Shown here piece after piece: positions 1 through 54,638 of a DNA stretch of 64,000 nucleotides. Within the stretch, counting starts at the first letter, position 1; each line of letters starts with the position of its first letter. The DNA comes from Torpedo marmorata (lineage: Eukaryota): NCBI GenBank assembly GCA_977017645.1, contig OZ360225.1, positions 172,608,001 to 172,672,000 of the forward strand, written 5' to 3'. A program made the position numbers and the translations under genes. The notes beneath the pieces are model-generated. The model was not told the DNA's origin and did no database searches. It saw only the letters and a program-made list of their open reading frames with translations.

Positions 1-1003
1 AGAGGCTGGCTCCCTGGCTCAGAAGGGAAGGGGGGAGAAGAGGAGAGCTATGGTCATTGGGGACTCATTGGTTAGGAGAGCAGATAGGAGGTTCTGTGAA
101 CAAGATCGAGGCTCCCGGATGGTATGTTGCCTCCCAGGTGCCAGGGCCAAGGACGTCTCTGATCGAGTTCAAAGCATTCTAGAGGGGAAGGGCAAGCAGC
201 CGGATGTCATGGTCCACGTGGGAACCAATGACATAGATAGGAGTCGGGATGCGGTCCTGAAGAGGGAATATAGGGAGATAGGAAGGAAGTTAAAAAGCAG
301 GACCTCAAGAGTGGTAATCTCAGGATTGCTGCCTGTGCCAAGCGCCATAGAGAGTTGTGGCAGATAAATGCGTGGCTGAAGAGTTGGTGCCAGGGGCAAG
401 GGTTCAGATTTGTGGATCATTGGGATCTCTTCTGGGGAAGGTCTGACCTGTACAAAAAGGACGGGCTGCACCTGAACTGCAGGGGGACCAATAGCCTGGC
501 AGGCAGGTTTGCTAGAGCTGTTGGGGAGGGTTTAAACTAGTTTGGCAGGGGGGTCGGAATCAGAATGTGAGTGCAGAGATTTGGGTAGAAGGACAAAAGC
601 ATGATGCTTGGTGCTCTGAATTGGTGAGGAAGGACAGGCAGGGGACAAAACATAAAGGTAGCCAGTTAGAGGGTTTGTAATGTGTCTATTTCAATGCTCG
701 GAGTATTAGGAATAAAGGCGATGAACTTAGAGCATGGATCAATACATGGAAGTAAGATGTTGTGGCCTTTACTGAAATTTGGCTGGAGGAAGGGCAAGAT
801 TGGCTGATGCAGGTACTGGGGTTTAGGTGTTTTAAATAGAATAGGATGGGAGGTAGAAAAGGTGGGGGGGGGGAGTAACATTACTGGTCAGGGATAGTAT
901 CACGGCTATAGAAAGGGAGGACGCTGCAGAGGGAGTGTCCACTGAGTCGGTGTGGGTGGAAGTGAAAAATAGGAAGGGAGCTATCACTGTGCTGGGAGTC
1001 ATA
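1..1003 (+). mobile_element. CR1 LINE fragment: ORF1 SGNH/GDSL-esterase domain and start of ORF2 APE endonuclease (decayed)
   Basis: ORFs 50-367/355-540 carry VIGDSL, HVGTND and DGLHLN esterase blocks. CVYFNARSIRNKGDEL (endonuclease N-terminus) is at about 681. Same family as the minus-strand CR1 at 35420-36830. Confidence 0.9.
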
Positions 1004-1018
1004 TTGCAACAGCAATGT

Positions 1019-1655
1019 TGTAAATTAGCTTAGGCACTGATGAAGGTCGCCTTTTCAACCCCCTTCGTCCAAGTCCAGGGTGGTGCTCTTTTCTTCAGCA
1101 AACGTACCACAAGGATTGGAAGGCTCAGACACTTTAATTTCCTGGTACTCCTTTATTCACACACAAGCTGGTGGGAGATCCTTCATACCCCGTAGAGAAT
1201 CAAGAAACTCTCCGAGCATACAAATGCATGGGTTTAAATTCTCCAACGCTATCTGATAGTAGCCAATCTCAAAACAGACACCTCCTAGGCAGCAAGTATT
1301 ATTCCATTAGCATTAAGCTATGCAATGTCCATCTACATGATGCACCATATTGTGGACCAATGACGCAGATGTTTACCCCTCCTCTAAGGCATTTTTACAG
1401 TTTTGATTCCCCTAATTCCTGTAAATCACATGATTCTAGAGAGAAACAGGGCATTTGGAAAGTTACATTCCAGAGCCTCTCGCTGTCCTTGCCTGTTGTT
1501 GCCAGGCAACACACATCCTGTGCCCCCCTCAACGTCTGTTGTGTTCAGAATAGGTTTGATGCTTCAAAGAGAATCAAGTTTGGACACGTGTTATTAACAA
1601 ACAGTGATCTTTATTTATGCACAGGGGAATTCACAAAAGGGCACACAGCACCAAT
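1019..1655 (-). mobile_element. ERV-type LTR (partial), related to the LTR at 60635-61311
   Basis: About 1085-1540 aligns by eye to about 60716-61170 (shared gtttaaattctccaacgcta, ccaatctcaaaacag, gcaccatattgtggaccaat, cccctaattcctgtaaatcacatg, gttgccaggcaacacacatcctg). Ends are approximate. Confidence 0.7.
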
Positions 1656-1805
1656 AGCCTGAATACGACTGGGATTGTCTGATCTCGGAAGCTAAGCAGG
1701 CACAGGACTGGTCAGTACTTGGAGGGGAGACTGCCAAGGAACACCAGGTGCTGTAGGTTTCTGTGAGGGGCGCTGGACAAAGTAGTGACTCTCTGTCTGC
1801 CTTAC
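1656..1805 (+). mobile_element. 5S rRNA-derived SINE (SINE3), 5' part, split by the Gypsy insertion
   Basis: 1656-1760 matches 5S rRNA (TCTGATCTCGGAAGCTAAGCAGG...AGTACTTGGA.GGGAGAC...GGTGCTGTAGG) with the box A and box C regions. It continues at 6341. An uninterrupted copy lies at 7153-7379. Confidence 0.92.
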
Positions 1806-2049
1806 TGTGGTAAACCACTGTTTTGTGTATTGTGTGTACTGCTGTCTGTCCCAACGACTCCTCTCCCCTCCTTTGGGTCTCCAGGTAATCCCTCCCCTTT
1901 TCTCTCTTGAATAAAGGCTTGTGTGCTAGGGCTCCGCACTCAGTCCGGGAGATCTGTAGGTCCACTGCAGCTCTGTTCTATGTATATTAAAGCCTATGGT
2001 ACGTTAACCCTCTCATAGTCTCTTGAGTGCTTAATTGATAGGCATATCA
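1806..2049 (+). repeat. Gypsy 5' LTR
   Basis: tgtggtaaacc...ggcatatca; direct repeat of 6092-6335. Confidence 0.97.
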
Positions 2050-2050
2050 A

Positions 2051-2068
2051 TTTAATATACATACAACA
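2051..2068 (+). promoter_or_regulatory. Putative self-priming primer-binding site (complementary to LTR 1974-1991)
   Basis: No TGG tRNA-type PBS follows the LTR. tttaatatacata (2051-2063) is the exact reverse complement of tatgtatattaaa (1979-1991), extending to 17/18 bp. Confidence 0.7.
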
Positions 2069-2080
2069 AAAAAAAAAATT

Positions 2081-5000
2081 ATGGAAGGCGCCCTCCGACC
2101 GGACCGACTAGACATCGACCCTTTGGCTCCTGACGCTGGTCATGCATTCGAACACTGGCTACGCTGCCTCCGATCGTTCTCAAAGGAGGTCAAAGCCGAA
2201 AGCGACGAGCAGAAGCTAGAGGTCCTAGTATCTAGGGTAAGCCCTCGATTGTATTCGACCATCTGGAAATGCGGAACGTACAACGAGGCGATGGAGGTGC
2301 TGAGAAAGATCTATGTGACCCCTGTTAATGAGGTCTATGCAAGGTACAGACTATCGTTGCGGAAACAGCGGGCCGGGGAGTCAATGGTGGACTTTGTCAG
2401 AGACATCCAGTACCTAGTGCGAGCGTGCGCCTGTAAAGCGCTGACGGAAGAGCAACATGTTGATCTGCTGGAGAGGGACACCTTTATTATGGGGATGAGG
2501 TCAACATACGTACGCCAGCGGCTGCTGGAGCACTCTGATCTCGATCTTCGTTCTGCGGTGGCGATGGCTTGCACACTGGAGTCCGCGCTGCAGAACTCCG
2601 ACGCGATGCAGACGCGGGACCCCCAGCCTAATGCGTGGATCGCCCCGTTCCCCAGCCCCACCGATCCAACTGTGGCCGCTGTGGCCCGCGACCCGATTGC
2701 TGCCGCCGCTACCCGCGACCCGACCGCTACCAACGCTACTCTCACCGCCGCAGCTGTTAATCGCGAGCCCAAGAAGTGCTACTTCTGCGGGCTCGACAAG
2801 CATCCGAGGAAGCGCTGCCCGGCCCGCGACGCGACTTGTTCCAACTGCGGCAAGAAAGGCCACTACGCGAAGGCCTGCCGCTCCAAGCCGCGCGCGGGCC
2901 CGAGTAGTGCCGCGTGCGAGAGATGGGAGCGGCCATCTTGCAGACTGGCACTTCCGGCGCCGACCGCGTGTGAGGAGTGGAAGCGGCCATCTTTCATGCT
3001 GGCACTTCCGGCGCCGCCATCTCAGAGCCATACATCGTTACTTCCGGCACTTCCGGCGCCGCCATTTTGTGCAGAGACCTCCAGCGACACGTGCAACCCA
3101 CGGGAGCGGCCATTTTTAAAGACCTCGGATCAAGACGACTTCACCCCTACTTTGGCATCCATCACCCTCGACCAGAACGTTCCCCACCAGCTGACAAGAT
3201 CCATGATGGACATACTGGTCGAGGGACACAAGATAAATTGTTTATTTGACACTGGAAGCACTGAGAGCTTTATCCACCCGGATACTGTTCAACGCTGTGG
3301 CCTAACGATCGTACCGGTAAGCCAGAGGGTGGCCATGGCGTCCGGGTCCCACACAACCGACATCCGGGGGGCGTGTGTGGCGAACATTGTGGTACAAGGG
3401 GCAGAGTACAGACAATTTTCCTTCTTTGTGATGAACCGTTTGTGTGCGCCGGTATTACTGGGTTTGGATTTTCAGAGCCATTTGCAGAGCGTTACAATGC
3501 GGTATGACGGTCCTCTCCCCGCGATCACTGTAGCCAACCACCAGTTTCTGGACAGCACGCCCGAAACCACCTGTGGTCTTTCTACCCTTAAGATCTCGCC
3601 TCCGTCGTTGTTTGCGAACCTGACCCCGGACTGTAGGCCTGTGGCAACTAAAAGCAGGCGTTACAGTACCGAGGACAGAGCATTCATCAAGACGGAGGTA
3701 CAAAGATTGCAACAGGAAGGGATTATAGAGATGAGTAATAGTCCCTGGAGAGCCCAGGTGGTCATTGTAAAAGGGGCCAAGAGCAGAATGGTGGTGGACT
3801 ACAGCCAAACCATTAACAGGTTTACGCTTCTAGATGCATACCCGCTACCACGGATAGCGGAGATGGTGAACCAAATTGCCCAATACCGCCTCTTTTCCAC
3901 CATCGACTTGAAATCGGCATACCATCAGCTCCCTATCCGTCGGGAGGACCGCCCATACACCGCGTTCGAGGCAGATGGCAGGCTGTTCCAATTCTTGCGC
4001 CTTCCTTTTGGTGTTACTAATGGTGTTTCTGTTTTTCAGCGGGAGATGGACAGGATTGTGGACCATTACAAACTCAAAGCCACTTTCCCATACCTTGACG
4101 ACATTACCATCTGTGGTTATGATCGTCAGGACCATGACAACAACCTCCGGAAGTTCCTGCAGGCGGCAAAAGCTCTAAACCTCACGTATAACAAAGAAAA
4201 ATGCGTGTTTGGTACCACTCGCCTCGCTATTTTGGGGTATGTGGTCGAGAACGGGGTAATTGGACCAGACCCCGAACGCATGCGGCCCCTGCTGGAACTT
4301 CCGCTCCCCGCCAATCCCAGAGCCCTTAAACGATGCCTCGGGTTCTTTTCTTATTATGCCCAATGGGTCCCAAATTATGCGGATAAGGCCCGACCCCTTG
4401 TGAAATCCACTGCATTTCCCCTTGCTTCGGAGGCACGTAAGGCGTTCGACCTTATAAAAGGGGACATTGCGCGAGCAACAATGCACGCAGTGGATGAGGA
4501 GACACCCTTCCAGGTGGAGAGTGACGCATCGGACTTCGCGCTGGCTGCTACCCTCAACCAGGCGGGAAGGCCGGTGGCATTTTTCTCCCGAACCCTACAG
4601 GGCCCCGAAATTCGGCACTCAGCGGTGGAGAAGGAAGCCCAGGCCATAGTGGAGGCCATCAGGCACTGGAGGCACTATCTTGCCGGTAAGCGTTTTACCC
4701 TGCTGACAGATCAACGCTCTGTGGCATTCATGTTCAACAATCAGCAGCGGGGTAAGATCAAAAATGACAAGATCATGAGGTGGAGAATAGAGCTCTCCAC
4801 CTACAATTACGACATCATGTACCGGCCCGGGAAGCTCAATGAGCCCTCCGATGCTCTATCCCGGGGATCATGCGCCAGCGCGCAGGTCGACCGATTACAC
4901 GCCCTACATAACGACCTATGCCACCCAGGAATTACCAGGCTCTTTCACTTCGTGAAGTCACAGAACCTGCCATACTCCCTGGAAGAGGTCAGGACAATGA

Positions 5001-6016
5001 TCAGCAGTTGCCGGGTTTGCGCGGAGTGCAAACCCCAGTTTTACCGCCCCGACAAGGCACAGCTGATCAAAGCCACTCGCCCCTTTGAACGTCTCAGCAT
5101 TGACTTCAAGGGTCCCCTTCCCTCCACGAACCGCAATGTGTATTTTCTGAACATTATTGACGAGTACTCGCGGTTCCCCTTCGCCATTCCCTGCCCCGAC
5201 ACTTCGGCTGCCTCAACCATAAAAGCCCTTCGCCAGGTATTTACGCTGTTCGGCTTCCCGAACTACATTCATAGCGACCGGGGATCAGCTTTTATGAGTG
5301 AGGAGCTGCGCCAGTTCCTGCTGACCCGGGGCATCGCCACTAGTAGGACCACCGCATACAACCCCCGAGGTAATGGACAGGTGGAAAGGGAGAACGCCAC
5401 TGTCTGGAAGGCGGCGCTCCTGGCTCTCAAGTCCAGGGGACTGCCGGTTTCCCGCTGGCAAGATGTTCTCCCCGAAGCCCTCCATTCGATACGGTCCTTA
5501 CTGTGCACAGCCACAAATGTAACGCCTCATGAGAGATTTTTCTCCTTCTCCAGGAGGTCGAACACCGGGACCGCCCTGCCTGCCTGGCTGATGTCTCCGG
5601 GGCCGGTGCTGCTCCGCAACCACCTCCGGAGCAGCAAATATGAGCCCGCGGTCCAGAGGGTGCAGTTAGCGCACGCTAACCCGCAGTACGCCTACGTGGT
5701 CTTCCCGGATGGGAGAGAGGACACGGTCTCAATTCGGGACCTGGCGCCCGCGGGAGCGCCGGAGGAACCTCTCGATGGGCAAGACCACTCGCTGCGGCCC
5801 CTCCCTAGTCCCTCTTCTACAACGTCAGACCAGGCACCTGCGATGGAACCCACAATCCTGTCATCTCACCCAGCACCACAGGAGGAGGCGACGGCCTTGC
5901 CATCTTCCCCTGCACCACAACCCGCACCCAGGGTACCCCCTGCACCACAACCCGCACCCAGGGTACTGCGCAGGTCACAGAGGCGAGCCAAACCACCGGA
6001 TCGCCTTGACCTGTAA
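2081..6016 (+). CDS. gag-pol: Gag-Pol polyprotein (Gag with Zn knuckles, aspartic protease, RT, RNase H, integrase), 1311 aa
   Basis: CYFCGLDKH...CSNCGKKGHYAKAC; LFDTGS; RT LPFG...YLDD; RNase H ESDAS...TDQ; integrase H-x3-H/C-x2-C, IDFKGP, HSDRG, NGQVER. Order PR-RT-RH-IN; no chromodomain evident. Confidence 0.98.
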   Translation: MEGALRPDRLDIDPLAPDAGHAFEHWLRCLRSFSKEVKAESDEQKLEVLVSRVSPRLYSTIWKCGTYNEAMEVLRKIYVTPVNEVYARYRLSLRKQRAGESMVDFVRDIQYLVRACACKALTEEQHVDLLERDTFIMGMRSTYVRQRLLEHSDLDLRSAVAMACTLESALQNSDAMQTRDPQPNAWIAPFPSPTDPTVAAVARDPIAAAATRDPTATNATLTAAAVNREPKKCYFCGLDKHPRKRCPARDATCSNCGKKGHYAKACRSKPRAGPSSAACERWERPSCRLALPAPTACEEWKRPSFMLALPAPPSQSHTSLLPALPAPPFCAETSSDTCNPRERPFLKTSDQDDFTPTLASITLDQNVPHQLTRSMMDILVEGHKINCLFDTGSTESFIHPDTVQRCGLTIVPVSQRVAMASGSHTTDIRGACVANIVVQGAEYRQFSFFVMNRLCAPVLLGLDFQSHLQSVTMRYDGPLPAITVANHQFLDSTPETTCGLSTLKISPPSLFANLTPDCRPVATKSRRYSTEDRAFIKTEVQRLQQEGIIEMSNSPWRAQVVIVKGAKSRMVVDYSQTINRFTLLDAYPLPRIAEMVNQIAQYRLFSTIDLKSAYHQLPIRREDRPYTAFEADGRLFQFLRLPFGVTNGVSVFQREMDRIVDHYKLKATFPYLDDITICGYDRQDHDNNLRKFLQAAKALNLTYNKEKCVFGTTRLAILGYVVENGVIGPDPERMRPLLELPLPANPRALKRCLGFFSYYAQWVPNYADKARPLVKSTAFPLASEARKAFDLIKGDIARATMHAVDEETPFQVESDASDFALAATLNQAGRPVAFFSRTLQGPEIRHSAVEKEAQAIVEAIRHWRHYLAGKRFTLLTDQRSVAFMFNNQQRGKIKNDKIMRWRIELSTYNYDIMYRPGKLNEPSDALSRGSCASAQVDRLHALHNDLCHPGITRLFHFVKSQNLPYSLEEVRTMISSCRVCAECKPQFYRPDKAQLIKATRPFERLSIDFKGPLPSTNRNVYFLNIIDEYSRFPFAIPCPDTSAASTIKALRQVFTLFGFPNYIHSDRGSAFMSEELRQFLLTRGIATSRTTAYNPRGNGQVERENATVWKAALLALKSRGLPVSRWQDVLPEALHSIRSLLCTATNVTPHERFFSFSRRSNTGTALPAWLMSPGPVLLRNHLRSSKYEPAVQRVQLAHANPQYAYVVFPDGREDTVSIRDLAPAGAPEEPLDGQDHSLRPLPSPSSTTSDQAPAMEPTILSSHPAPQEEATALPSSPAPQPAPRVPPAPQPAPRVLRRSQRRAKPPDRLDL

Positions 6017-6091
6017 ATTATGACTGTAAATACTTTGAGATTGTATTGTGGCCACTCCACCCCGCTGGACTCTTTTAAAAGGAGGGGTGAA

Positions 6092-6335
6092 TGTGGTAAA
6101 CCACTGTTTTGTGTATTGTGTGTACTGCTGTCTGTCCCAACGACTCCTCTCCCCTCCTTTGGGTCTCCAGGTAATCCCTCCCCTTTTCTCTCTTGAATAA
6201 AGGCTTGTGTGCTAGGGCTCCGCACTCAGTCCGGGAGATCTGTAGGTCCACTGCAGCTCTGTTCTATGTATATTAAAGCCTATGGTACGTTAACCCTCTC
6301 ATAGTCTCTTGAGTGCTTAATTGATAGGCATATCA
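6092..6335 (+). repeat. Gypsy 3' LTR, preceded by PPT aaaaggaggggtgaa
   Basis: Direct repeat of 1806-2049. Confidence 0.97.
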
Positions 6336-6340
6336 CTTAC

Positions 6341-6422
6341 GGTAGACAAAAATTAAAGAATTTCATGTATGTTACATTCTAAATGTAGTATTACGTGACA
6401 ATAATGGAACCTTTACCTTTAC
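6341..6422 (+). mobile_element. SINE3 3' part with (CCTTTA)n tail
   Basis: Matches the reverse complement of 7153-7230 and ends gtgacaataatggaacctttacctttac. Confidence 0.9.
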
Positions 6423-7780
6423 TTCCCAGTTTTTTTCACGTGCCCTCCCACCCATATCCACCTATGACCTCTTGCCTGTGGGCCAGTGCTCCTCCCCCAG
6501 GATTTTACTAATTTTTATTCCAATATCTCCAATTTTCTTAACTTCTTTAATATGGGTGGATAAATCTGTGATGTTAGATGATTCGTCTGGGATATAAGTA
6601 CAGCATTCTCTCCCAATAAGAGCAAAAGTGCCCCCCTTTTCAGCTGATATGATGTCCAGGGCCATCCTGTTTTGAATTACAACATAACGTATTGCAGCCA
6701 TTTCAGTAGTTATGGCCATTACCTGACTCTGAGTTTTACTAAGGGATAAAACAGTTCTATTTGCCAGTTGTTCCAGAGATGCTGCGAGGTTAATGATTTC
6801 ACGTGAATTCCGGGCAGTTCCATAAAAGGGAAAAGCAATCATCCAGAACCTTTCACTTTCAGAAATTCCACGCTTATCCCTTCCCAGGTGTGGATTCTCT
6901 TGCAAGTGAGGCAAGATTCGTAAATGGGGGACTATATAGGCCAGATAGCAACACCCTGTCCACAGTTTATGGCTTGGCTGGGTGTGCCACCGCTGGTGTT
7001 GGCTCGATTGCCACATATCCAGTATGTCTTTACGTATGTGGTATTTGTAATGCAACTCTGCTTTCCTACAAAGAGAGTATCCTTTCCCTTCTGAAAGTTA
7101 CAGTAGCACACACACAGCATCAGTTACTGTGAAATCATAGCTGGAGAGTATGGGTAAAGGTTCCATTATTGTCACGTAATACTACATTTAGAATGTAACA
7201 TACATGAAATTCTTTAATTTTTGTCTACCGTAAGGCAGACAGAGAATCGCTACTTTGTCCAGCGCCCCTCACAGAAACCTACAGCACCTGGTGTTCCTAG
7301 GCGGTCTCCCCTCCAAGTACTGACCAGTCCTGTGCCTGCTTAGCTTCCGAGATCAGACAATCCCAGTCGTATTCAGGCTTTAAGGCCAGGAAAGCTTTTG
7401 TGCTTTAAACTTGTTATAGTATATATTGGGCCATAAATACCAGCCCTCAAAGCACTGGCAAAGACAATCATCTGGGGTTCTTTCAGTTTTTATCTCTGTT
7501 ACCTTGTGTCTCATTTGACATTGCCCATGCTGAGAGTCTTTCACTGTTGTTAAGGGCAACAACGGAAACTGGGATCAGACTGCTGCCATGTGGCGGGACT
7601 TCAGCTCACACCCAACACTGGTCACTACTCACTCTCCTAGCGTAATGGAGACATAAGGACAAAAATGTGTTTCTATCTTATTCAGGGAAGGGTTTAGGGG
7701 GGTAGAATCTGGTGGGATATGGGTACCTATCATGTCAATAATAGTAACAGTAAAACATAAGCTCAGTCTTCATCATGCTT
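6423..7780 (-). pseudogene. env: ERV-1 env remnant (TM ectodomain in ORF 6462-7055), interrupted by SINE3
   Basis: IQNRMALDIISAEKGGTFALIGRECCTYIPD = ISD plus a decayed CX6CC. The membrane anchor is missing. Confidence 0.9.
7153..7379 (-). mobile_element. 5S rRNA-derived SINE (SINE3), complete copy
   Basis: Its reverse complement equals 1656-1805 + 6341-6417 with 4 substitutions counted by eye. Confidence 0.93.
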
Positions 7781-7782
7781 TC

Positions 7783-9500
7783 TTAGTTAGAGTCTTTATA
7801 ACCTTTTCCAATTTGTTTACAGTCCGAGTAGTGTATCCACCGCGGATGTCCTTCAACCTTTACTGCCGTAGGTGTGGTCAGCAGCACTTGAACAGGGCCT
7901 TTCCAGCAGGGTCCTAATTTATTCCGATCCCCATTTTGAATCAGCATGTAGTCGCCGGGCTGGAGGAGGGGCACCTGTTTGCCGTCAATAGGTTCCTCGG
8001 GATACCTCTGAGTCTCTTTCACCTGTGAGTGTAGGACTGACAGTGCTTTGGTTAGTTGCTGTACATAGGTGGCCATTTTTTCACTTAGCGCATGTAAATC
8101 TAAAGTAACGTCAGTCTTAGGATTTGCTCCCCAAGGCGCTCGGAGTGGCCTCCCATACATAACCTCAGCTGGGGTTAACCCCGTACTGCAGGGCGGGGTT
8201 ATACATGTTTCAAATAAAGCCAACAGCAATAACTTTATCCAATTAAACCTAGTTTCTTCTGACAACTTAGCCAACTTATTCTTTAAGGTCCCAGGTAGAT
8301 CAATAATAACAAGACAAGCAATTCTATAAAATCAACCTATATACAATCAAATGGTAGACATTCATGTCCTTCCCTGAGGGCACTTAATTTCTTTACCAGG
8401 ATTATTTTGCTGACAGATGATACATTCCTGTGCCTTTCTTTGTGCCACTTTTCTCAATTTAGTGTGTCACTCCTACCATTCCCTTCTTAGCCAAATATAT
8501 TATTGCATGTATATAATTCAGCAGTACAGGTAAAAATTGCATTAGGTACAGAAATTGTCCAGCAGGGGTGGTTCATAAATCAGTTTCTGGATTTCTGGCG
8601 CACCCCCGCTGTTTCCAGAGTTTAATCAAATTAGCAGGGCAGGGGCATCCCCCTGAAGTTACACCACATCCCCATATCAGGCAAGACCGTTCTATTTTCA
8701 AGCAGTTTATCACTTTCTGAATAAACGGTGAAGGGACCATTTATAACAGCAGCTTTTGCAATGGCATCTGTGTAAGCATTCCCAAGGGCTACAGGGTTCT
8801 GATATGGGCATAAATTTTCCTTTCCCTATCATGTAGGCTCTAATAAGAGCAAACAATTCAAATTGCTGGGAAAGATTGGATGGTGGAAGGCAGCCGTCTT
8901 TATTACTTCATCAGTATTTTTCACAATGGCATAACCTGCACAGTGTAGACCTGTATCCTCAACAAAGGCTGATCAGTCAATAAACCAAGTCGTAGTTTCA
9001 TCAATGGGACTGTCTATTAAATCTTGTCGTGCCAGAAGTCAAAAGATAATTATGCTGCAAACAATCATAATCTGGTTCTTCAAGTTCACCTGGAGGCGGT
9101 ATTAAAAAGGCTGTCGAGTTAACAGTAATTCAGTCGTGGAAGGTCAGATATGAATTCACTAAGAGAAAAAGTTCATAGTGGCTTAAACATGCTTGAGTCA
9201 TGTGGTCTGTTTGATTAGACGTCAGGAGAGCTGTCACTGAATGCTGGATGTAAACTTGTACTGACTGATGTAAGGTGGTATGGAAAGTAGTTAAGTAGGT
9301 TTATCCTGACCATACTTCCTCTGATACTTCTCCAGTATTTTGCCATGGACTTCTTGAGGCGTCAATGCTCTCTGCGAGAAATCTTGTAAAGTTGTTCCTG
9401 TATCAATCAAAAATGGAAGAGAGACACTCTGCACCCTCATTGTAACGATAGGTTCCTCATTCCTTCTTCGTGTCACTAGGGGGGAGGCAGTGAGAACCAC
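7783..9500 (-). pseudogene. pol: ERV-1 pro-pol remnant with internal deletions (RT polymerase domain and IN core largely missing)
   Basis: LPFLIDTG at about 9400-9420; RNase H-like WFID (about 8985) and GNAYTDAIAK (about 8760-8785); IN C-terminus TGLTPAEVMYGRP...WKGPVQVLLTTPTAVKV..WIH in ORF 7783-8274. Confidence 0.88.
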
Positions 9501-11769
9501 TGGTCCCTTATCGGATCACTGGCAGAAGGGATTATTAATAATAAAAGATGCCTGATGGCAATCGTCCTCTCCGGAGGAGGGGCTCTCCCAACGCCAATGT
9601 CCTTCTCCACCAAACTTAAAACAGACATGTCGGCGAGTTGGTGGTCCACGAGATAATTATTAGGTGTACTCCGGGTGCCTGGGCAGGGTGTCTAGAATCG
9701 GTCTCGCCCCTGAGGTGGGTTAGAGCGCTGAACCGGAACCTGTGTTGGTTTGCTGGAATACGGCCAATCATCTCTTTTATCATCATCTCTCATCAGTGTT
9801 CTTAAGAGATATTCATATTTCACTTTGGGTTTCAGTGGTGCCTCAGCTCTCTCTTTATTACTCGGCCAGTTCTTTGGTATTATCTGACCAGTTTAAGTTA
9901 GTCTTAAACAATTATGCTGGTTTTTTTTCTGGTAAGCATTGCATAAAGATTGCATTAAATTAAGCCGAGGGCTGGTCATCATTAAATGTCTGATCTGCAG
10001 CATAAGTCTGGTGCGCTACAATAAAAGTGTTTCCAAATTCCCTGTGCAGTGTCTTTGGGGAGGGGTTTACATTCCAGTCAACTGGTCGCTTTAGTTTAAA
10101 CTATCAATTGGCTGGTGCCGGTGCTGTCTGAATTCTTCACACAACAGTACGGGATCTTGCGGTGTTTGCATTGCCCTCCCTCTATTTCACATTTTACTCA
10201 GGTTTCAAAATTTAATGACACAGGGAAAAAAAATCCTGGGATTGAGTCCCATACATGTTTTAAGTTGATCTGATATAGTCAATAAAGCCCTTTGGATTTT
10301 TACTTCTGTTGGGAGCATGGTGGGCTATTAACAACATTTCTTGTTGTTTTCACAGAGTATATATTTCCCCTGGTTTATTTTTCTTTCTTCTCTGTCTCGT
10401 TTTTACTCCTTCTGCTGTACAAGTTAGTAACTGAGATTGCAAGTGAGATTGTAAACACTGAAGGAGTGAAACACCATTTCTTAACTGTCATTTTCATGTC
10501 CAATTAGCTGTGAATCTGCTGCATGAATTGGCTTTTACATTGCGACCTGTAATCTGTGTCTGCCAATTTAATCCTACAAAGCGCTGGTGAAACAGATGCA
10601 TTACAGCATGTTCGTAAAAAAAAAGGATTCATTCCATTAGGAGTGAAGCACTCTAGAGGGCAGGTTTCAAATTACTGTTGATGATACCTTCAGCTCGTTT
10701 TTTTTTAATCCCCTCTTCCTCACACCCTGCACAGTCTTGTACAAACAAAAGTGCTCGAGGAGCCTGGAAGGTGGGAGGCAAACGTTTTCAAGTTTCTTTT
10801 TCCAAAATGAGCAACGATTCTCCATCAAAGCTGAGTCTGAAACCTCATTTAGCTGCTTCTCCTTCTTCGTATCTAGTGAGACACGGGGCTAGTGGAGTTG
10901 TGGCTGCTGGGGTACATATGGGGGTGGTCTTGCCCACAAGGAATCTTTTGATTCCTCATCCTCATCATTCTGCAAGAATAGGGTCGCCATGCCTGACATC
11001 GGGACCCCGGGGTTTTCTTTTATCACCTTCTGTTTGTTAACCATCTGGCACCTAGCTCTGCTCTCATTCTCTCTCCGATTTCTCTCCTGATTGTCATCCC
11101 TCACATTCAGCCTGCAGGACTTCTCAGTCTTTTTGGAGCACCCTCCTTTGTACGTTACACTATCCCTCTATAACTTGCATTTTTCCTCCAGTTTATTTCT
11201 TTAGATTTTTGCTATTCTTGTATACGCTTTCTCCATTTCTTTGCTGCATCCTTTTCCTACACTTATTTGTCCCTGCGATCGCATGATTCTCCCTTTGTTT
11301 CTGTTCCCTTTCTTTTTTTCTCTTGTTTATCGTGGCAGTCATGATCTGACTGAAATACCTGCCAGGTTTTTCTGGTTTCCATTCTGAGTACATACCACTA
11401 TCCCCTGCACAGCTTTTTATCCCTCCAGCTCTTTTTCTTTGTTCCTCTTTTACATACCACTATTCCCTTTTTCCACTTTTTCTTTTTAAAATATTTTTAT
11501 TGAGTTTAACATATCTTGCATACATAATTGTAATGAACAGATAACAAATCTTTTCATATACATGTAAAATAACTCTTTTTCCACTTTTTAGCGGCATCTT
11601 TTTCCCACATTAGCTGCTCTGCCTCAGCTATAGTGATCGTGTTCCATGTCCCTCCTACGGACCATACTTCATTTGTTAGAGTCACACTTAACATTCTTAA
11701 ATTCTTTTCATCTCCCGAGTGCAAATCACACATCGCCTTCACGAGAGAGCCTTTTTAACTCTGTCCCAT
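9500..11769 (-). pseudogene. gag: ERV-1 gag remnant
   Basis: MGQ start at 11769, W.VGGTW matrix-like block, PPPY late domain at about 10917-10928, CFKFGGEGHW decayed knuckle at about 9594-9623. Many stops and frameshifts. Confidence 0.8.
11482..11574 (-). mobile_element. 93-bp L1-type 3'-end insertion in gag
   Basis: 15-bp TSD ctttttccacttttt (11467-11481, 11575-11589), with AATAAA and an A-rich tail on the minus strand. Confidence 0.75.
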
Positions 11770-11899
11770 ACTTACCATAAATTTACCCGGCCAGCCCTTT
11801 TCTGGCCTCCTGCTCAATTCCTACCTTTTTTTTTACAATCTGAGTTGTGCAACTCACTGTCCTATTTAAATTCCTACTCTTAATTTACCAGGTCCTCAT

Positions 11900-12110
11900 T
11901 TCCTCATCTCTTTCCTATTTTTTTCTGCCATAGTAATTGTTCTGCTTTTTCAATATCTCATACAGACCACGTTTCTCCCGACTGGCCATGCTTCAATATT
12001 TGTTAATGCTGTCGAAAGCTGTCAAAATTCTTTACCATACTTCGGATACAAATAACACAGTTGTTGTACCGGGGTGCCCCCATCACTTTTGTCCATAGCC
12101 TGTTTCCCAT
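11900..12110 (-). pseudogene. Second matrix-like module upstream of gag
   Basis: Manual translation with 2 frameshifts: MG/QAMDKSDGGTPVQQLCYLYPKYGKEF*QLSTALTNIEAWPVG/TWSV*DIEKAEQLLWQKK, similar to 11580-11769. Confidence 0.7.
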
Positions 12111-12115
12111 ATTAC

Positions 12116-12363
12116 AATTCCGAGCGGCAAGTTACACTACCTGCAAAGTCACACGGTCGCTCCCCCGTTTGATTTGATTCTGAGCAGCAAGTTACACTAC
12201 TTGCAAAGTCACACGGTCGCTCCCCCGTTTAATTTGATTCTGAGCGGCAAGTTACTCTACTTGCAAAGTCACACGGTCGCTCCCCCAGTTAATTTGATTC
12301 TGAGCGGCAAGTTACTCTACTTGCAAAGTCACACGGTTGCTCCCCCGTTTAAATTGATTCTGA
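12116..12363. repeat. 60-bp tandem repeat x4 in the ERV-1 5' leader
   Basis: Unit ygagcggcaagttac.ctac.tgcaaagtcacacggtcgctcccc...ttgattc recurs at 12121, 12181, 12241 and 12301. Confidence 0.97.
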
Positions 12364-12622
12364 TTTTCTCTAACAGTCCCTTCCCTGGGACCACACTTAC
12401 TTTTCAGCCCTCTCTTTAAGGACCTACCTTTTTTCCACCGTTATTCTCTACGTCCGGATTTCGGCAGGGAACCAGATCAACCTCGGACAAGGGACCACAG
12501 TGTTCCCGGGAGCTTCCTTGGGAGGTCGATCTCAAAGGGTCCGACTAGAGCTCAATTTTCTCCCCGTCCAGTCCCGGCAACCTGCAGCCTCTTACTCAGT
12601 CTCTGGTGTCTGTCCCAGCGAA

Positions 12623-12640
12623 ATCCTGCCGGCTACGCCA
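12623..12640 (-). promoter_or_regulatory. Primer-binding site, tRNA-Ser
   Basis: TGGCGTAGCCGGCAGGAT; 17/18 match to the complement of the vertebrate tRNA-Ser(AGA/TGA) 3' end as recalled (ATCCTGCCGACTACGCCA). It lies 1 nt from the LTR CA end. Confidence 0.88.
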
Positions 12641-12641
12641 A

Positions 12642-13372
12642 TGTAAAATTTTGCCCGTGCTGCAATTTATCTGTGAATAAAGAATACAGCAGAGAACCAC
12701 AAAACAAGTTTTAAAACACAAACAGTTTATTACTGCAGTAACACTGGCGGGAGATAGGAGGCACTATGAAAAGTCAATGACTCTTCTCTAGTGCTGAGTC
12801 CTTCTCCAAAGTCAATACTTCAGGGGTCGACTTATATAGTGAATAAGATCAATGCCTACGTATGGTTTCACATGTTCTCACAAATTGAAAATAAATTGGA
12901 AACAGCTTTTACATTTGTTCATGGAATTGGAATGTCTTGTTGTTAAATTGATCACTCGACAGTGACTCCCAAAGCCTTTAATTACTTCTTAGCTCTAATC
13001 ACTCATTCAGGACTGTCACAGTTAATGTCTCTTACAGATGTGAAACGTTATCCCTTCTTGATAAGAAAAGCATTACAACTGATTTATATGACAGCCTTTC
13101 TGGGCAAATGAAGACATAATCTTCTTCAGAAACCGAAACTTAAAGTTCAACTAAAGTTACAATCCCATAATCCTTTGCATTCTATGTTGGCCAACTCTTA
13201 TAGAAACAGTCCCAGAATTCTTTACAATGCCACAAGATAATGTTTAAATTGTCCACAAACTTTAACATGGGTGCAAATAAATCGCTGCTAAACATTCTCA
13301 ACTCCCGATTGTGAATACAAGGGTTAAACACACAATGCCCATCCACCCACAGGCACAGCACACTAATGAACA
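12642..13372 (-). repeat. ERV-1 5' LTR
   Basis: Abuts the PBS and ends ...ttttaCA. TATATAA at about 12832-12838 and AATAAA at about 12726-12731 on minus. The distal end (TG at 13372) is inferred. Confidence 0.75.
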
Positions 13373-13910: not shown

Positions 13911-13989
13911 GACACCAATACCCCCTGGGCTGTCCACTACCTTTTGCAGGGCTTCACGCTTGGGGGTATAGGGACATCAATACCCCCGA

Positions 13990-14430
13990 GTATAAAGCCC
14001 TGAAAAAGGTAGTGGACACAGCCCAGGAAATCACAGGCAAACCTCTTCCCACCATCGAGAACATCTACGGGGAATGCAGCCGTCGGAGAGCAGTAGCAAT
14101 CATCAAGGATTCACACCACCCAGCACACACTCTGTTCTCACTGCTGCCATCAGGAAAGAGGTATAGGTGCCAAAAGACTTGCACCACCAGTCTCACGAAC
14201 AGCTGCTACCCCTCCACCTTCAGACTCCTCAACAACAAACTCAATCAGGGACTCATTTAAGGAATCTTACTTTTGCACTTTATTGTTTTTTTTCTCTCTG
14301 TATTGCACAGTCAGTTGTTCACATTTGTTTATTTGTTTACATGTGTATATTGTGTACAGTTTTTTTGCACTACCAATAAGTGGTAATTCTGCCTAGCCCG
14401 CAGGACAAAAAATCTCAGGGTTGTATGTGA
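13990..14430 (+). mobile_element. Rex1/Babar-like LINE 3' fragment
   Basis: IIKDSHHPAHTLFSLLPSGKRYR motif in ORF 14012-14260, followed by a 3' UTR. Confidence 0.82.
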
Positions 14431-15269
14431 TAAAGAGAATACAATAAGAACAGTACCTCTCTTCTAGAGGCTACTGCTTTTTGGACTTCAGATGTTTCTT
14501 GGTGCAATATTAAAGATGTCTTGTCTGGAGTGTCGAAATCACGTGACATGACATCATTGCTGTCTTTGAAGTTTCTTCTCTTCCAAAAGTATGAGTTGAT
14601 ATGGTTCCAAATTGTCTGCTGAAGCCACAAGCAAAAGCCTTTGTGTACACAGATCATTGAAGCAAAAGCCAGCTTGTTTGAACATATGCTTCTGAGTTTC
14701 CATTCTAACAACATGGGTAAACAAGCAGAGAGTCTTTTGTTTAACCAGATGTCCTCCTTGAGCACACCTCATTGTCCTAGATATTTCAATGACCAATCAC
14801 TCTGGTTTTATTGCCCTGTTTACCAGACTTTGCGTCTCAGAAAATGGCTTCTCTCTGAGTGTAATTGTGTGTGTCTGTAAGTGTGTCCCTGTCCAGCCCA
14901 CAATTCCTTTTACTAAGAAATATATATATAATTGTAACCAAAAATTAATAATAACAATTCCATCACAATATAAATTCCAACCTCACAGCTGGTTTTGTGA
15001 GTGGCTGATCGTGAGGTTTTTGGCATGGAAACTTTGTTAGTTCTTTGTCTGGAAGTTCAAACAAAGCATTTGTTGGATCTGTGCTAGCAGTTCCTGATGG
15101 TTTCCTCATGATGAATGCTGCTTCTGTAACTACACTGTAGGACGTCGATAACTGTAACGGATCATCACAAAAGCCTCAGGAAGAGCAGCATCTTGTTTGC
15201 GCCCACCATCAACTCTGTAACAGAAAGATGATCAGAGATCCAGCTCCCAGGACCCCATCCCTTGCACAC

Positions 15270-15522
15270 ATTTAAAAAAAAATTAGACATACATCACGGT
15301 AACAGACCCTTCCGGCCCATGAGACTGTGCCACCAAAATATACTCAGTTAACCTCCACCCCTCTACGTTTTTGAAAGGTGGGCGGAAACCGAAGTACCCA
15401 GAGGAAACCTACACAGACACGGGGAGAATGTACAGACACCTTTCAGACAGCGCCGGATTTGACACCGGGTCACTGGCACTGTAATAGCGTTGCGCTAACT
15501 GCTTCGATAACCATGCCGCCCC
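15270..15522 (-). mobile_element. tRNA-derived V-SINE (HE1-like)
   Basis: tRNA-like head, V-domain GGTTTCCTC.GGGT.CT.CGGTTTCC.CCCAC and CR1-type tail. Confidence 0.88.
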
Positions 15523-16019
15523 TAAGTCTATAGGCCTGACCTGTAATTTCTGAAATCAATGTTTGAGGAGGCTCAGGGTACTATAAAGCAGTGAAAAATG
15601 CAATAAAAAGGCTTGTTGTCTGCTGAACTTGCTGATCACTGTCTACTGATGGTTGTGAAAATAACCAAAACTCGAGGCCTTGGGATTCTTTCAGTGGTCT
15701 GAAAGAAACATGTACAGAATCCTGCAGTCAATTGCTCAAAAATGCATCAGGAAAATGACATTGCTTTCATTGCCTGACAATTACGCAAGCATTGCCATTT
15801 ATGAATTCAAGTGCTAGAATGGGTTAGGGTTAGGGATGACATGGATTTTCAGCTATGACTGACTTCCAACAAATCAGACTGAAAGAAACTGCATGTACGA
15901 AACATTCAGTGCACTTGCCCAGGAATGTGTATTAATCACAAGACTCTCCGCCCAACGATGTTCAGGTTGTCTTTTACCACAAGAAGACTTTTGTGCATGA
16001 GGGTGGGTATCCGTGAGAT

Positions 16020-21355: not shown

Positions 21356-22332
21356 ATTGTTTTCTTGATGCAGTTCCTGCATCATGAACTACTATTTTGT
21401 AGAAAAAAAATGTGGTTGGGAAGAAAGCTTCCAAACAGGAAAGGCATGAGACAAAAATAACCAGAAATTACCTGAGTAATAGTGGCCATTTAAAGGGAAT
21501 TGTTAACTTTTCAAAAATGATGTTTCATTCATTGGCAGGACAGAGTTCTGGTCTTTTCAATAGGATTGCCATCTGTATGATTCACCATGTTCACTTTCAC
21601 TGCCTTCTGACTTGCTTTTATGTTGGATAAAACTCATTTTCACAGCCATAGCTCATTCCTTAGCAACTGCCTCTACATTTAAATTACTCCTCATGTTTGT
21701 GACCACAGATATCTCCAGGAAATTAATCTTTAAATTGTTCATTTTGCCAAATTCTGAGATCCGCACTCAACACGATCCCATATCGTTTCAACAAACCTAA
21801 CTTCCCTCTTTGGTAACGCTGATTCATTCTTTCTCAAAGCTGCAGCTCCATTTCATCTTTAACTATATCCAGTACCTTAACAAGAACTTCACTTGTTCTT
21901 TTCAGGTGTGAAGGATCACAGACTTTATGAAATCCAGAATGCCAGAAACGTTCAGTTATTTCTTTCCCTTTATTTTCCTCTCACCACATCCTCTTTTCAA
22001 TCTCCTGACACTATTCCTTCTGATTTCCACTCTCTGGCACAGGAGTACCAGTCTTCCAAGGAAAGCTCCATTAAATTACACCTCTACCTCAATGGATTTT
22101 GAGCTTGGTACAATACTGAGATCTTCATCCAATGCCTTTCCATTTGTCAAGATTTCTTTGAATTTTAACACCAAAATCTTCACCCCTGCATAGAATTATC
22201 ATTCTACCTATATCCCTTTTCCAAATCTTTTGCTTAGAGACATCAGCAAGTTAGCTACACTGCATTGATTCCAACTTAATTATTTTCGAATTTGCAACTT
22301 CCTGATCTCTCAAGTCTAAACTACCATTATAA

Positions 22333-22590
22333 CGGTACGGTTGGCGTAGCAGTTAGCGCAACGCCTTTACAGTGCCAGCGACCAGGGTTCGAATCCCGCG
22401 CTGTCTGTAAGAAGTCTGTACGTGTCTCCCCGTGTCTGCATGGGTTTTCCCCGGGGGCTCCGGTTTCCTTCCACTGTTCGAAATGTACCGGGGGTGTGGG
22501 ATGATTGGGTGTAAGTTGGGCGACACGGACTCGTGGGCCGAAATGGCCTGTTACCGTGCTGTATGTCTACATTTTTAAAATTTTTTAAAT
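22333..22590 (+). mobile_element. V-SINE (HE1-like)
   Basis: A/B boxes (tggcgtagcagtt, ggttcgaatcc), V-domain and CR1-like tail. Confidence 0.92.
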
Positions 22591-23369: not shown

Positions 23370-23480
23370 TTCTAGCCCTTATCTTGTGGCCTTGACATTA
23401 TCATTTCTCCCACTGCTAGTCTATCTTCTGTCATTCTCCTATCATGGCCTTTAAGCTCCACTTTTAATCCTTACACATAT

Positions 23481-23774
23481 GGGCGGCACGGTTGGCGTAG
23501 CGGTTAGCGCAATGCCTTTACAGCGCCAGCGATCGTGACTGGACCAGGGTTCGAATCCCACGCTGTCTGTAAGGAGTTTGTACGTTCTCCCCGTGTCTGC
23601 GTGGGTTTTCCCCGGGGGCTCCGATTTCCTCCCACCGTTCAAAAAATATACCGGGGGTGCAGGTTAATGGGGTGTAAATTGGGCGGCACAGACTTGTGGG
23701 CTGAAATGGCCTGTTACCTTGCTGTATGTCTACATTTAAAATTTTAAAAATTTAAATTAAAAAAAAAATTAAAA
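23481..23774 (+). mobile_element. V-SINE (HE1-like)
   Basis: Same family as 22333-22590 and 62226-62480. Confidence 0.93.
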
Positions 23775-25611: not shown

Positions 25612-26302
25612 CACACCGGTCACTGAAGGCTAACACGCAGGTTCAGAAAGCTGTGAAGAAGGCAAATGGCATGTTGACTTTCATAAAGAGGGGATTGGAG
25701 TATAGGAGCAGAGACGCCCTTCTGCAGTTGTACAGAGCCCTGGTGAGACCTCACCTGGAGTATTGCATCCAGCTCTGGTCCCCAAATTTGAGGAAGGACA
25801 TACTAGCTATAGAGGGTGTGCAGCGCAGATTTACAAGGTTAGTTCCAGGGATGGCAGGATTGACATATGCTGAAAGGTTAGAAAAACTGGACTTATATCC
25901 AATGGATGAGGGGGGGACATGATTGAGGTATACAAGATTATCAAGGGGATGGACAGGGTGAAGTCGGATTACTTGTTCCCAATGATGGGAGAGACGAGGA
26001 CTAGAGGGCATAGTTTAAGAATACAGGGAAGGCCCTTTAGGTCGGAGATGAGGACATTTTTTTTTACCCAGAGAAGTGTGGAATGCTCTGCCACAGAGGG
26101 TGGTAGAGGCAGATTCACTGATTATGTTCAAAAGAGAGTTAGATAAGACTCTAGTGGGCAGGGGAGTTAAGGGTTATGGGGATAAGGCTGGAAAGGGGTA
26201 CTGATAGTAGTGATCAGCCATGATCTGTAAAATGGCGGTGCTGGCTTGACGGGCTGAAGGGCCTACTCCAGCTCCTATTGTCTATTGTCTATTGTCTATT
26301 GT
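25612..26302 (+). mobile_element. 5'-truncated young CR1, same family as 43045-46305
   Basis: Near-identical peptides (SLKAN.QVQKAVKKANGML...KLDLYPM) and a (CTATTGT)n tail at 26275-26302. Confidence 0.93.
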
Positions 26303-26605
26303 CAAATGCAAGTAAACCGTGTCCTTAAGAATCCACTTCAATAGCTTTCCTATCGATAATATAAGGCTTAACAGTCCATATTGTACAGAATTATCATTAT
26401 TTCATTTCTTAAATAAAAGAACAACAATGGCTACCCTCCAGTCCTCTGGGACTTCAATTACAGCTAGAAAAGATATGAAGATTTCTGTCAATAACCCAGT
26501 AATCTTCTCTCTTGCCTTTCTCAATAACCTTACCCTCTGGACGTATTCACCTTAATGTAGATCCAATGCCTCCTCCTCGATGATGTCAACATGCCTTAGA
26601 ACATT

Positions 26606-27790
26606 TCAGAATCAGAATCAGAATCAGAATTTAATGTCATGAACAAGTCATGAAGTTCGGTGTTTTGCGGCAACATCATAGTGCAAACATTCATATTATA
26701 ACCATCTTACGACATTACTATAAAAAAATATAAATAATAGTGCACGAAAAGTAAGGCAAGTGTCTTTGGTTCATTGATTATTCAGGAATCTAATGGCAGC
26801 GGGGAAGAAGCTGTCCTTGTGCCGTTGAGTGCTCGTCTTTAGGCTCCTGTACCTTTTTCCCGATGGTAGCAGAGTGAAGAGGACATGGCTTGGGTGGTGG
26901 GGGTCTTTGAGGATAGAGGCTGCTTTTTTAAGGCACCGCCTCATGTAGATGTCCTCGATGGAGTGAAGTCTGGTGCTTGTGATGTCACAGGCCGAGTTAA
27001 TAACCCTCTGGAGTTTATTCTTGCCTGAGAGCTGGCGCTTCCATACCAGGCAGTGATGCAACCAGCCAGAATGCTCTCCACGGTACACCTGTCGAAGATT
27101 ACGAGAGTCTTCGGTGACATACTGAATCTCAGACACCACACAAAGTATAGCCGCTAGCGAGCCTTCTTTGTGATTGCATCAACATGGAGGCTCCAGGACA
27201 GATCCTCGGAGATGTTGACACCCAGGAATTTGAAGTTCTTGACCCTCTCCACTACTGAGCCCTCGATGAAGACTCGGTCATGTTCCCCTGACTTCCTACT
27301 GAAGTCCACAATCATTTCCTTGGTTTTGCTGACATTGAGCGCAAGGTTGTTGTCGTTACATCATTCAACGAGCTGATCTATCTCCCTCCTGTACGCTTCC
27401 TCATTGCCGTTTGTGATTCTGCCGACAACTGTGGTGTCATCGGCAAACTTGTAGATGGCATTGGAATTGTGCCTGGCCACACAGTCGTGGGTGTATAACG
27501 AGTAGAGCAGTGGACTAAGCACGCATCCTTGGGGTGCGCCTGTGTTGATAATCAGTGAGGAGGAGACGTTGTTTCCAATTCGTACTGACTGTGGTCTTCC
27601 GATGAGAAAGTCAAGGATCCAGTTGCAGAGGGGGGTACAGAGGCCAAGAGTTTGTAGCTTCTTGACCAGCACTGAGGGAATAATTGTATTGAAGGCTGAG
27701 CTGTAGTCGATAAAGGGCAGCCGTATGTATGAATTGCTGTTTTCGAGGTGATCCAGAGCTGAGTGGAGAGCCAGCGATATTGCACACTGA
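26606..27790 (-). mobile_element. Rex1/Babar-like LINE, 5'-truncated
   Basis: [20 protein letters not shown]...[10 protein letters not shown]; LLPSGKRYRS; tail catgacattaaa(TTCTGA)n. Confidence 0.9.
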
Positions 27791-28049
27791 TCACACTATC
27801 TTCCATGTCGTTCTCCTTGGTGTAATACCAGTGCAAAGTACCAGTAATATCCTGGTGAATCTCTTCTGATACCTTTCCAACTGAATGATATCCTTCCGAT
27901 AGCTGAGCAACCAAGTGTGGTCCCATCAGCAACTTGTACAGCTGTATCTTGGGGTTCCAACTGTTGTACTCTATAACCTGACCAACGAAGGCAAGCATGT
28001 AAAATGCCTTCTTCACCATCCTGTCCAACTGGGTTGCCATTTTCTGGAA

Positions 28050-54442: not shown

Positions 54443-54638
54443 ATAAGGGTTCCCTTACCTTCAGCTCCCTTATCAACTTTGCTTCATGACACAATACCCA
54501 ATCCAGAATTGCCATTTCCTTGTTTGACTCAGCCACAAACTCCTCTAAGAAGCCACTTCCTCACACCCTGTCCCCTGCAAGGATTCCATCCCCTTCTCTC
54601 AATTTCTCCGCCCCTGCCGCATCTGTTCCCAAGATGAG

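Follow-up and report, generated by a model that had tools for sequence, protein, structure and literature searches.

Two near-identical copies of a short retroposon lie in a 64,000-nt stretch of the Torpedo marmorata genome (assembly GCA_977017645.1, contig OZ360225.1, positions 172,608,001 to 172,672,000 of the forward strand; hereafter the window, within which all positions are given). Each copy is headed by sequence derived from 5S ribosomal RNA (rRNA), and this 5S-headed retroposon is real. We read it, at a probability of roughly 0.6, as a young SINE3, that is, a 5S-headed short interspersed element (SINE) transcribed by RNA polymerase III (Pol III), whose copies would have been retrotransposed independently by a long interspersed element (LINE) of the Rex1 clade residing outside the window. 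The comparisons below support an end of Rex1 type rather than of L2/CR1 type.

Two copies of a 5S-headed retroposon

At gathering level, the sole Rfam matches in the window are two 5S rRNA-like segments in opposite orientations (43.3 and 40.2 bits, cut-off 38), each the head of one copy (Table 1). The copies differ at 4/227 aligned positions (1732, 1736, 1786 and 1789; 98.2% identity), with CpG to TpG changes in copy 1 making up two of the four. All four differences fall in the first 150 nt of copy 1 (chance 0.19, a figure that bears on recombination between two SINE copies). Both heads begin at 5S position +16, lacking the first 15 nt of 5S, and end in TTT; a 120-nt body follows, which ends in TGACAATAA and then one or two CCTTTA units, with tail lengths that differ between the copies. 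Similarity stops at the element borders, the longest common word being 8 nt in the 100-nt 5′ flanks and 6 nt in the 3′ flanks. No target-site duplication was accepted for either copy (longest common words 5 and 4 nt in 30-nt flanks).

An initial annotation had described near-identical copies of ~230 bp with four differences, a 5S head with a TTT terminator and a body closing in the same motif plus a microsatellite. The differences, the head and the closing motif all hold, and copy 2 is whole at 225 nt. Copy 1 is not contiguous as supposed there, since a Gypsy long terminal repeat (LTR) retrotransposon, which went unmentioned, lies between 1805 and 6341; the repeat amounts to merely one or two CCTTTA units.

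The element has the layout of a SINE3: below 1 kb (225 nt), non-tandem, composed of head, body and tail, and set in unrelated flanks. SINEBase asks that a 5S head be 60% or more identical to 5S rRNA across a minimum of 60 nt, and that a family number at least 100 interspersed copies per genome (PMC3531059). The heads score above the Rfam gathering level and, by eye, copy 2 is identical to a stingray class II 5S at 69/77 positions and copy 1 at 67/77; this reference spans +44 to +120 (PMC3123226, supplement 1) and is not the host's own 5S. Eight changes from it are common to both copies, and copy 1 has two more. The extra 120-nt body and these common changes, counted against stingray rather than host 5S, distinguish the element from a pseudogene. 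A functional 5S gene or 5S array is ruled out by the missing first 15 nt, the lack of a T4 run and the lack of a tandem unit. The inverted arrangement of the copies and their LINE-type tails likewise exclude an LTR element like Cassandra/Ajax and a DNA transposon that has the copies as its termini. Bacterial and archaeal assemblies contain no exact copy of the head–body junction (0 matches), a result uninformative for copy number.

Copy 2 retains 14/15 box A, 5/6 intermediate-element and 16/18 box C positions, with box limits as we assume them. It keeps 7 CpGs in 225 nt, an observed/expected ratio of 0.63 versus 0.32 in the adjacent env remnant and 0.47 in the window. Among the eight common head changes one falls at a CpG site, and that site varies between the stingray classes (by eye). 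So few CpGs among the common changes, together with CpG to TpG changes between the copies, suggest divergence of a source followed by decay after insertion; sequence comparison thus appears to fit a common source element that had diverged from 5S beforehand better than it fits one decaying 5S pseudogene or two of them. No T4 run occurs in the 225-nt sense strand; the first lies 321 nt beyond the copy 2 tail, and for copy 1 at 1821, within the Gypsy LTR. Mature 5S rRNA ends in TTT, and because the head does likewise, the junction itself is the simplest account of the weak terminator.

Four tRNA-type SINE copies in the window (15365–15525 on the minus strand; 22330–22575, 23480–23735 and 62226–62475 on the plus strand), which presumably resemble HE1/V-SINEs, share 79–90% identity over 6 pairs. 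Because the 5S copies share 98.2%, the 5S element is much younger than these, and the initial description of it as young stands in this relative sense.

Table 1. Positions of the retroposon copies and of the window elements that bear on them
Feature	Position	Strand	Remarks
LTR-like left flank of copy 1	1017–1655	−	Related to 60634–61310, unrelated to 12642–13260
SINE copy 1, 5′ part	1656–1805	+	Head 1656–1760, then body as far as hairpin B loop; carries all 4 differences
Gypsy LTR retrotransposon inside copy 1, 4530 bp	1806–6335	+	LTRs 1806–2049 and 6092–6335
SINE copy 1, 3′ part	6341–6423	+	Two CCTTTA units; 6341–6417 identical to copy 2; end ambiguous versus flank
Decayed endogenous retrovirus hosting copy 2, abutting copy 1	6418–13260	−	env remnant on both sides of copy 2
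SINE copy 2, whole, 225 nt	7155–7379	−	Bases 7152–7155 of tail ambiguous versus flank
Copy 2 head (5S +16 to +120)	7275–7379	−	Rfam RF00001, 40.2 bits
Copy 2 promoter boxes (assumed limits)	Box A ~7345–7331; intermediate element ~7328–7323; box C ~7315–7298	−
Copy 2 body	7166–7274	−	Predicted hairpins A 7270–7242, B 7241–7222 and, after an A-rich spacer, C 7207–7172
Motif TGACAATAA of copy 2	7174–7166	−	3′ end of body
Copy 2 short tail	7152–7165	−	One CCTTTA unit
Rex1-like LINE (26.6-kb LINE)	26606–27795	−	5′-truncated, broken, (TTCTGA)n tail; bipartite end motif and terminal hairpin
Non-coding GC-rich element (35.2-kb element)	35163–35415	−	Inserted in CR1 ORF2; last 85–125 nt the closest relative of the SINE body
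Rex1-like LINE (52.4-kb LINE)	52430–54430	−	5′-truncated, broken, (CTTGA)n tail; RVT_1; PF09004 (E 5.8e-15); 3′ motif, weak terminal hairpin

Source of the body and type of the 3′ end

We compared the 120-nt body with 21 element ends of the window (1000 shuffles each) and with 2514 window tiles. The sole significant end is that of the 35.2-kb element (score 70, 0/1000 shuffles, z 14.8), which aligns at 71% identity over 89 nt (E 2.5e-6) and supplies the top 3 of the tiles; the initial annotation did not list it. The first 31 nt of the body match it weakly (220/5000 shuffles), so that homology with it may stop short of the 5S junction. The SINE body folds into three predicted hairpins (z −3.1, 1/200 shuffles as stable), and the same three are predicted for the 35.2-kb element (z −1.4, 15/200). 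By eye, the aligned stems contain few substitutions and these preserve pairing, in structures derived from those same two sequences. Neither Rfam nor ARAGORN found a 5S or tRNA head on the 35.2-kb element. A decayed 5S head there was considered and rejected: 7/2000 simple shuffles score as high, but so do 9–26/490 GC-matched tiles, with unstable alignments. The element is possibly a 5′-truncated member of a larger non-autonomous family and of the class that donated the SINE body.

The tail was further compared with Rex1-like LINEs, two of which retain complete ends in the window, and with L001, a 5.4-kb outside locus holding a fish-type LINE within a bacterial assembly. The reverse transcriptase (RT) pieces of the three share 52–67% mutual identity and 26–37% with CR1. 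PF09004 lies near the C-terminus in 2/9 RT pieces and, by eye, in ~82 of the 120 listed relatives; its link to Rex1 is our assumption, which a literature search did not confirm. Further Rex1-like fragments lie at 13915–14435 (plus strand; truncated tail end with a stem like hairpin B) and 60330–60633 (plus strand; carrying PF09004 and cut by an LTR-like insertion). Fish-type LINE sequence occurs in three bacterial assemblies (L001 at 887–3650, with microsatellites in that locus, L002 and L003) and is most likely eukaryotic contamination of bacterial records.

The two complete Rex1-like ends have an 11-nt motif in common, which is found at exactly 3 sites in the window, these two and the 35.2-kb element; the SINE agrees with it at 9/11 positions, a level of agreement reached by 70 sites in 128,000. 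Two boxes derived from the SINE alone, allowed one error each, find 4 sites (shuffle mean 0.03, maximum 1 in 30): the two SINE copies, the end of the 26.6-kb LINE and the 35.2-kb element. With 2+1 errors, for which shuffling of the window gives a mean of 1.2 per 64 kb, their sole match in L001 is the 3′ end of its LINE, the exact pattern having no match in that locus. A stem closing just before CA(A/T)TAA is found at five window ends, those of both copies, the 35.2-kb element and both complete LINEs; when stem interiors are shuffled, 19 (SINE), 96 (35.2-kb), 84 (26.6-kb) and 1208 (52.4-kb) of 2000 do as well. By eye, the same AATT-CA/stem/TG-CAAT layout closes the LINE Rex1-24_NV, and it is not seen in the zebrafish SINE3 or elephant shark SINE ends given in the available part of the PMC3472496 supplement. 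An expected trait of a Rex1-clade LINE/SINE pair is a 3′ region that is conserved and has a short oligonucleotide repeat behind it (PMC6274825), and the element has both, in TGACAATAA and its CCTTTA units.

By motif and layout, then, the tail is most likely of Rex1 type and inherited through the 35.2-kb class of element. Because the Rex1-like LINEs of the window are truncated and broken, with other repeat units at their ends and no intact frame, the actual partner LINE is not in the window.

Proposed history and its alternatives

Both copies are set in older proviral sequence. The provirus hosting copy 2 is recognized by PF00429 (E 4.3e-7) and PF18697 (E 9e-14), contains several stops and frameshifts, and retains an integrase remnant (7786–8331) and an LTR-like segment (12642–13260; LTR and primer site by eye); its env remnant is interrupted by copy 2. 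The LTR-like sequence to the left of copy 1 aligns with 60634–61310 at a score of 410 and with 12642–13260 at 31 (shuffle means 27 and 28). Copy 1 therefore sits at an apparent deletion junction, since it joins the env remnant to an LTR-like piece of a different provirus. Among 460 candidates screened as env relatives, so as to size the changes at the target sites, 0 passed. The Gypsy element within it has 244-bp LTRs with 0/244 differences, a 5-bp target duplication (1801–1805 and 6336–6340) and a gag-pol in one 1324-aa frame (2042–6016) with protease, RT, RNase H and integrase domains. If the LTRs had the age of the divergence between the copies, finding them identical would be improbable (0.014), which argues for the order provirus, SINE, Gypsy.

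The Gypsy element is apparently intact and very young, with a CpG observed/expected ratio of 0.82 and, by eye, no evident tRNA primer site after the 5′ LTR; its protein had no exact match (0/2 sequences) in the protein collection searched. At least two endogenous retrovirus families left remnants in the window (1017–1655, 6418–13260 and 60634–64000, minus strand). Within the window, the provirus at 6418–13260 lacks a second LTR that matches its own, and its leader contains a 60-bp tandem repeat (12117–12363).

In the history that we propose, the element would have been born while a LINE reverse transcriptase was reading a non-coding RNA of the 35.2-kb type with a Rex1 tail: the enzyme would have changed templates, continuing on mature 5S rRNA from its 3′ end. 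We suggest such a birth because the head–body junction coincides with the TTT at which 5S ends, and because the body has its match in the 35.2-kb element. The source element would then have diverged from 5S, acquiring the eight changes (by eye) now common to the copies. Pol III would transcribe it from the internal 5S promoter and, with no T4 inside, read through to the tail. By analogy with other stringent LINE/SINE pairs, the LINE ORF2 would recognize the 3′ hairpin, TGACAATAA and the short repeat, and insertion would proceed by target-primed reverse transcription without target duplication. Two such insertions may have entered the old provirus, one with loss of target sequence; copy 1 later lost two CpGs and was split by Gypsy, whose LTR puts T4 at 1821. 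Judged from its sequence, copy 1 is dead as a source and copy 2 is intact.

A number of results weigh against mobilization by a Rex1-clade LINE, and some against independent insertion. Direct alignment of the body with LINE ends is significant in 0/4 cases: at the three Rex1-like ends of the window 351, 40 and 248 of 1000 shuffles score as high, and the L001 end gives no alignment (945/1000). Five non-Rex ends reach a nominal 9, 14, 20, 36 and 46 of 1000, values that equal, beat or approach the best of the Rex1-like ends, none surviving correction for 21 tests. LINE ends are absent from the 25 listed matches of a profile built from the SINE and 35.2-kb tails, and a consensus fold of five tails has 0 pairs, from an alignment so visibly poor as to be uninformative. 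The end motifs were picked after the sequences had been inspected; the loosened two-box motif also matches 2 window sites that are not element ends, the 52.4-kb LINE end is matched by neither version and has a hairpin no better than shuffles, and 2/5 background TGACA(A/T)TAA sites likewise close a stem. That the 26.6-kb, 52.4-kb and L001 LINEs are Rex1/Babar is our own assumption, no tool having given the name. A profile search with the head found no third copy in the window. A type-1 Pol III promoter is expected to start near +1, not +16, and the proposed history leaves both the common start at +16 and the close spacing of the copies unaccounted for.

The initial annotation had held that Rex1/Babar LINEs of the window end similarly to the SINE, citing ends at 26606–26660 and 52430–52457, and had suggested aligning the tail to the 3′ untranslated regions of intact Rex1/Babar elements. 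Both ends exist, on the minus strand, and the resemblance holds at the level of motif and hairpin. It does not extend to pairwise alignment, which is significant instead to the 35.2-kb element with its Rex1-type end. The connection of the SINE with Rex1 is thus indirect, by way of motif, hairpin and this intermediate non-coding element.

Before the Gypsy insertion the copies lay ~0.74 kb apart, at a chance of ~0.025 for two random points, and this spacing in inverted orientation is the main support for a local event at the level of DNA. One copy would have been duplicated, inverted, as a templated insertion during repair of a deletion that removed the 3′ end of the provirus, and the pair would then be uninformative on recent retrotransposition or family size. 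The joining of two unrelated proviral pieces at copy 1 speaks for such an event, as do the identical start base of the copies, the copy 1 tail repeat that runs into a similar flank word and the lack of a further copy in 64 kb. We nevertheless consider it unlikely: copying would have had to begin and end exactly where the element itself does, taking along none of the flank, the copies have no bases in common at the 5′ junction, and the eight common, mostly non-CpG changes from 5S are left unexplained. The initial annotation had named a purely local duplication as one outcome that would overturn it, and the window does hold just two copies close together; their similarity ends at the element borders all the same.

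Very unlikely, in our view, is a true SINE3 moved by another LINE clade (L2, CR1, Crack or RTE), with its Rex1 likeness convergent or a relic of the donor. Vertebrate SINE3 is reported as mobilized by the CR1 clade (PMC7245038), CR1 is abundant in the window and includes an intact 1004-aa ORF2, and such a partner would suit both the lack of significant direct alignment with any Rex1-like end and the lack of a matching tail repeat in the Rex1-like LINEs of the window. However, 0/7 CR1 and 0/2 Penelope-like ends of the window are significantly similar to the SINE body, 2/3 L1-like ends are no better than shuffles and the third is AT-rich. When up to 3 mismatches are allowed, the window contains 0 matches to the end motif of L2/CR1 type that zebrafish SINE3 carries, and by eye the SINE end bears no likeness to the alignment of such ends in the PMC3472496 supplement; the better-fitting CR1/L2 partner that the initial annotation allowed for did not emerge in the window. 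The donor-type 35.2-kb element has an exact Rex1-type end.

The least probable alternative is a one-off chimeric retropseudogene, in which 5S rRNA and a Rex1-tailed RNA were joined by template switching, decayed and copied once with no Pol III family: the junction at the mature 5S end, the 5′-truncated head and the dependence of 5S promoters on upstream signals, which may leave them silent after retroposition (PMC3272025), all fit it, yet neutral decay of 10% should strike CpGs first, whereas copy 2 keeps its 7 CpGs (0.63 versus 0.32 in env) and 7/8 head changes lie off CpGs (by eye, a count weakened by the use of stingray rather than host 5S).

Known SINEs and other elements of the window

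We set the proposed Rex1-mobilized SINE3 against known systems in the available portions of PMC3747384, PMC7245038, PMC10946416, PMC5786205, PMC4824008, PMC5499810, PMC6274825, PMC3472496, PMC3531059, PMC3123226, PMC2746220, PMC5135761 and PMC3272025. There, 5S-derived SINEs are rare, at 2.3% of the first SINEBase release (PMC10946416), vertebrate 5S-SINEs are moved by the CR1 clade (PMC7245038), to which Rex1 is closely related (PMC6274825), and the partners of catalogued 5S-SINEs are CR1/L2, RSg-1, RTE/BovB or I-clade LINEs. Zebrafish SINE3-1 and AmnSINE1 (5S-Deu) likewise combine a 5S head carrying an internal type-1 promoter with a non-coding body, a LINE end and a simple-repeat tail (PMC3747384). 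They differ in having a Deu domain of ~330 bp (PMC4824008), for which the 225-nt window element has no room, and a CR1_DR/L2-type end (PMC3472496 supplement), whose motif it does not carry; the window element, in contrast, lacks the first 15 nt of 5S. Length alone excludes a Deu domain, the 120-nt body being mostly explained by the 35.2-kb element. The element is probably a variant of SINE3, with an end of Rex1 type and no Deu domain.

Salmonid OS-SINE1 joins a 5S head to an RSg-1 tail common to SlmI and HpaI (PMC3747384, PMC5135761, PMC3272025), much as the tail of the window element is common to a non-autonomous element; it has a Deu domain, which the window element by its length does not. 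If RSg-1 belongs to the Rex1 clade, the pairing of 5S with Rex1 is already known from salmonids. Closest in origin is HaSE3 of Helicoverpa, whose 5S head was template-switched onto the 3′ part of the non-autonomous HaSE1; it is an insect element with an RTE partner, shows target duplications in some copies and is 94% identical to its donor, against 71% between the window element and the donor-type element (PMC3272025). Sea anemone SINE2-5_NV, paired with Rex1-24_NV, is the sole SINE with a named Rex1 partner in the tables of PMC3747384 and the PMC3472496 supplement; the end of that LINE has a stem layout like that of the window element (by eye), whereas the SINE has a tRNA head, a cnidarian host and another sequence and repeat unit. 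Chondrichthyan HE1, SacSINE1 and SINEX-1_CM/SINE2-1_CM come from the same host group and are all tRNA-headed, with HER1 or CR1-type tails (PMC3747384). The available portions of PMC3747384, PMC10946416, PMC5499810 and PMC2746220 contain no 5S-headed chondrichthyan SINE, and a literature search, with returns that were partly off-topic, gave neither a shark or ray 5S-SINE nor a 5S-SINE for which a Rex1 partner is named.

A broader proposal can be put forward only tentatively, and as a whole it is doubtful. It holds that these copies belong to a chondrichthyan SINE3 family absent from the catalogues and active recently or even now, the first among vertebrate 5S-SINEs to have a partner of the Rex1 clade; that the family was made by grafting a 5S promoter onto a Rex1-tailed non-coding element and has a fixed, non-canonical 5′ end at +16; and that its three-hairpin 3′ module (last stem of 6–16 pairs across elements, closing motif kept) marks an RNA signal for Rex1 reverse transcriptases. 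In our judgement, the odds that a catalogue already contains the family or the pairing are slightly short of even, and the family may already sit in Repbase or Dfam. A Rex1-driven 5S-SINE in cartilaginous fish would, if true, add a head–tail pairing and another case of a 5S promoter grafted onto an existing non-autonomous element, with a 120-nt substrate for testing what Rex1 enzymes recognize; a young family would give insertion markers for sharks and rays. The general view of SINE function would be unchanged.

Other elements of the window include a CR1 LINE (43041–46300, minus strand) with the intact 1004-aa ORF2, nested in an L1/Tx1-like element. Among named matches, this ORF2 (43128–46142) is most similar to sequences from Chiloscyllium punctatum (75% identity over 75% of the region) and Mobula birostris (63% over 100%), with birds and turtles at 43–55% among the 120 matches listed, a pattern that points to a cartilaginous fish; a CR1 3′ fragment at 25614–26303 is 95–97% identical to the same LINE. 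A Penelope-like element (54490–60000, plus strand) has a direct repeat 4261 bp apart (96%) and a weak GIY-YIG match (E 0.002), and contains a 57-bp GC-rich minisatellite (56287–57032). GC-rich segments at 37620–38140 and 50600–50720 have 34/68-bp internal repeats; by eye, their ends appear to flank 13 kb of nested L1/Tx1-like LINEs, and the element that they represent is possibly DNA transposon-like.

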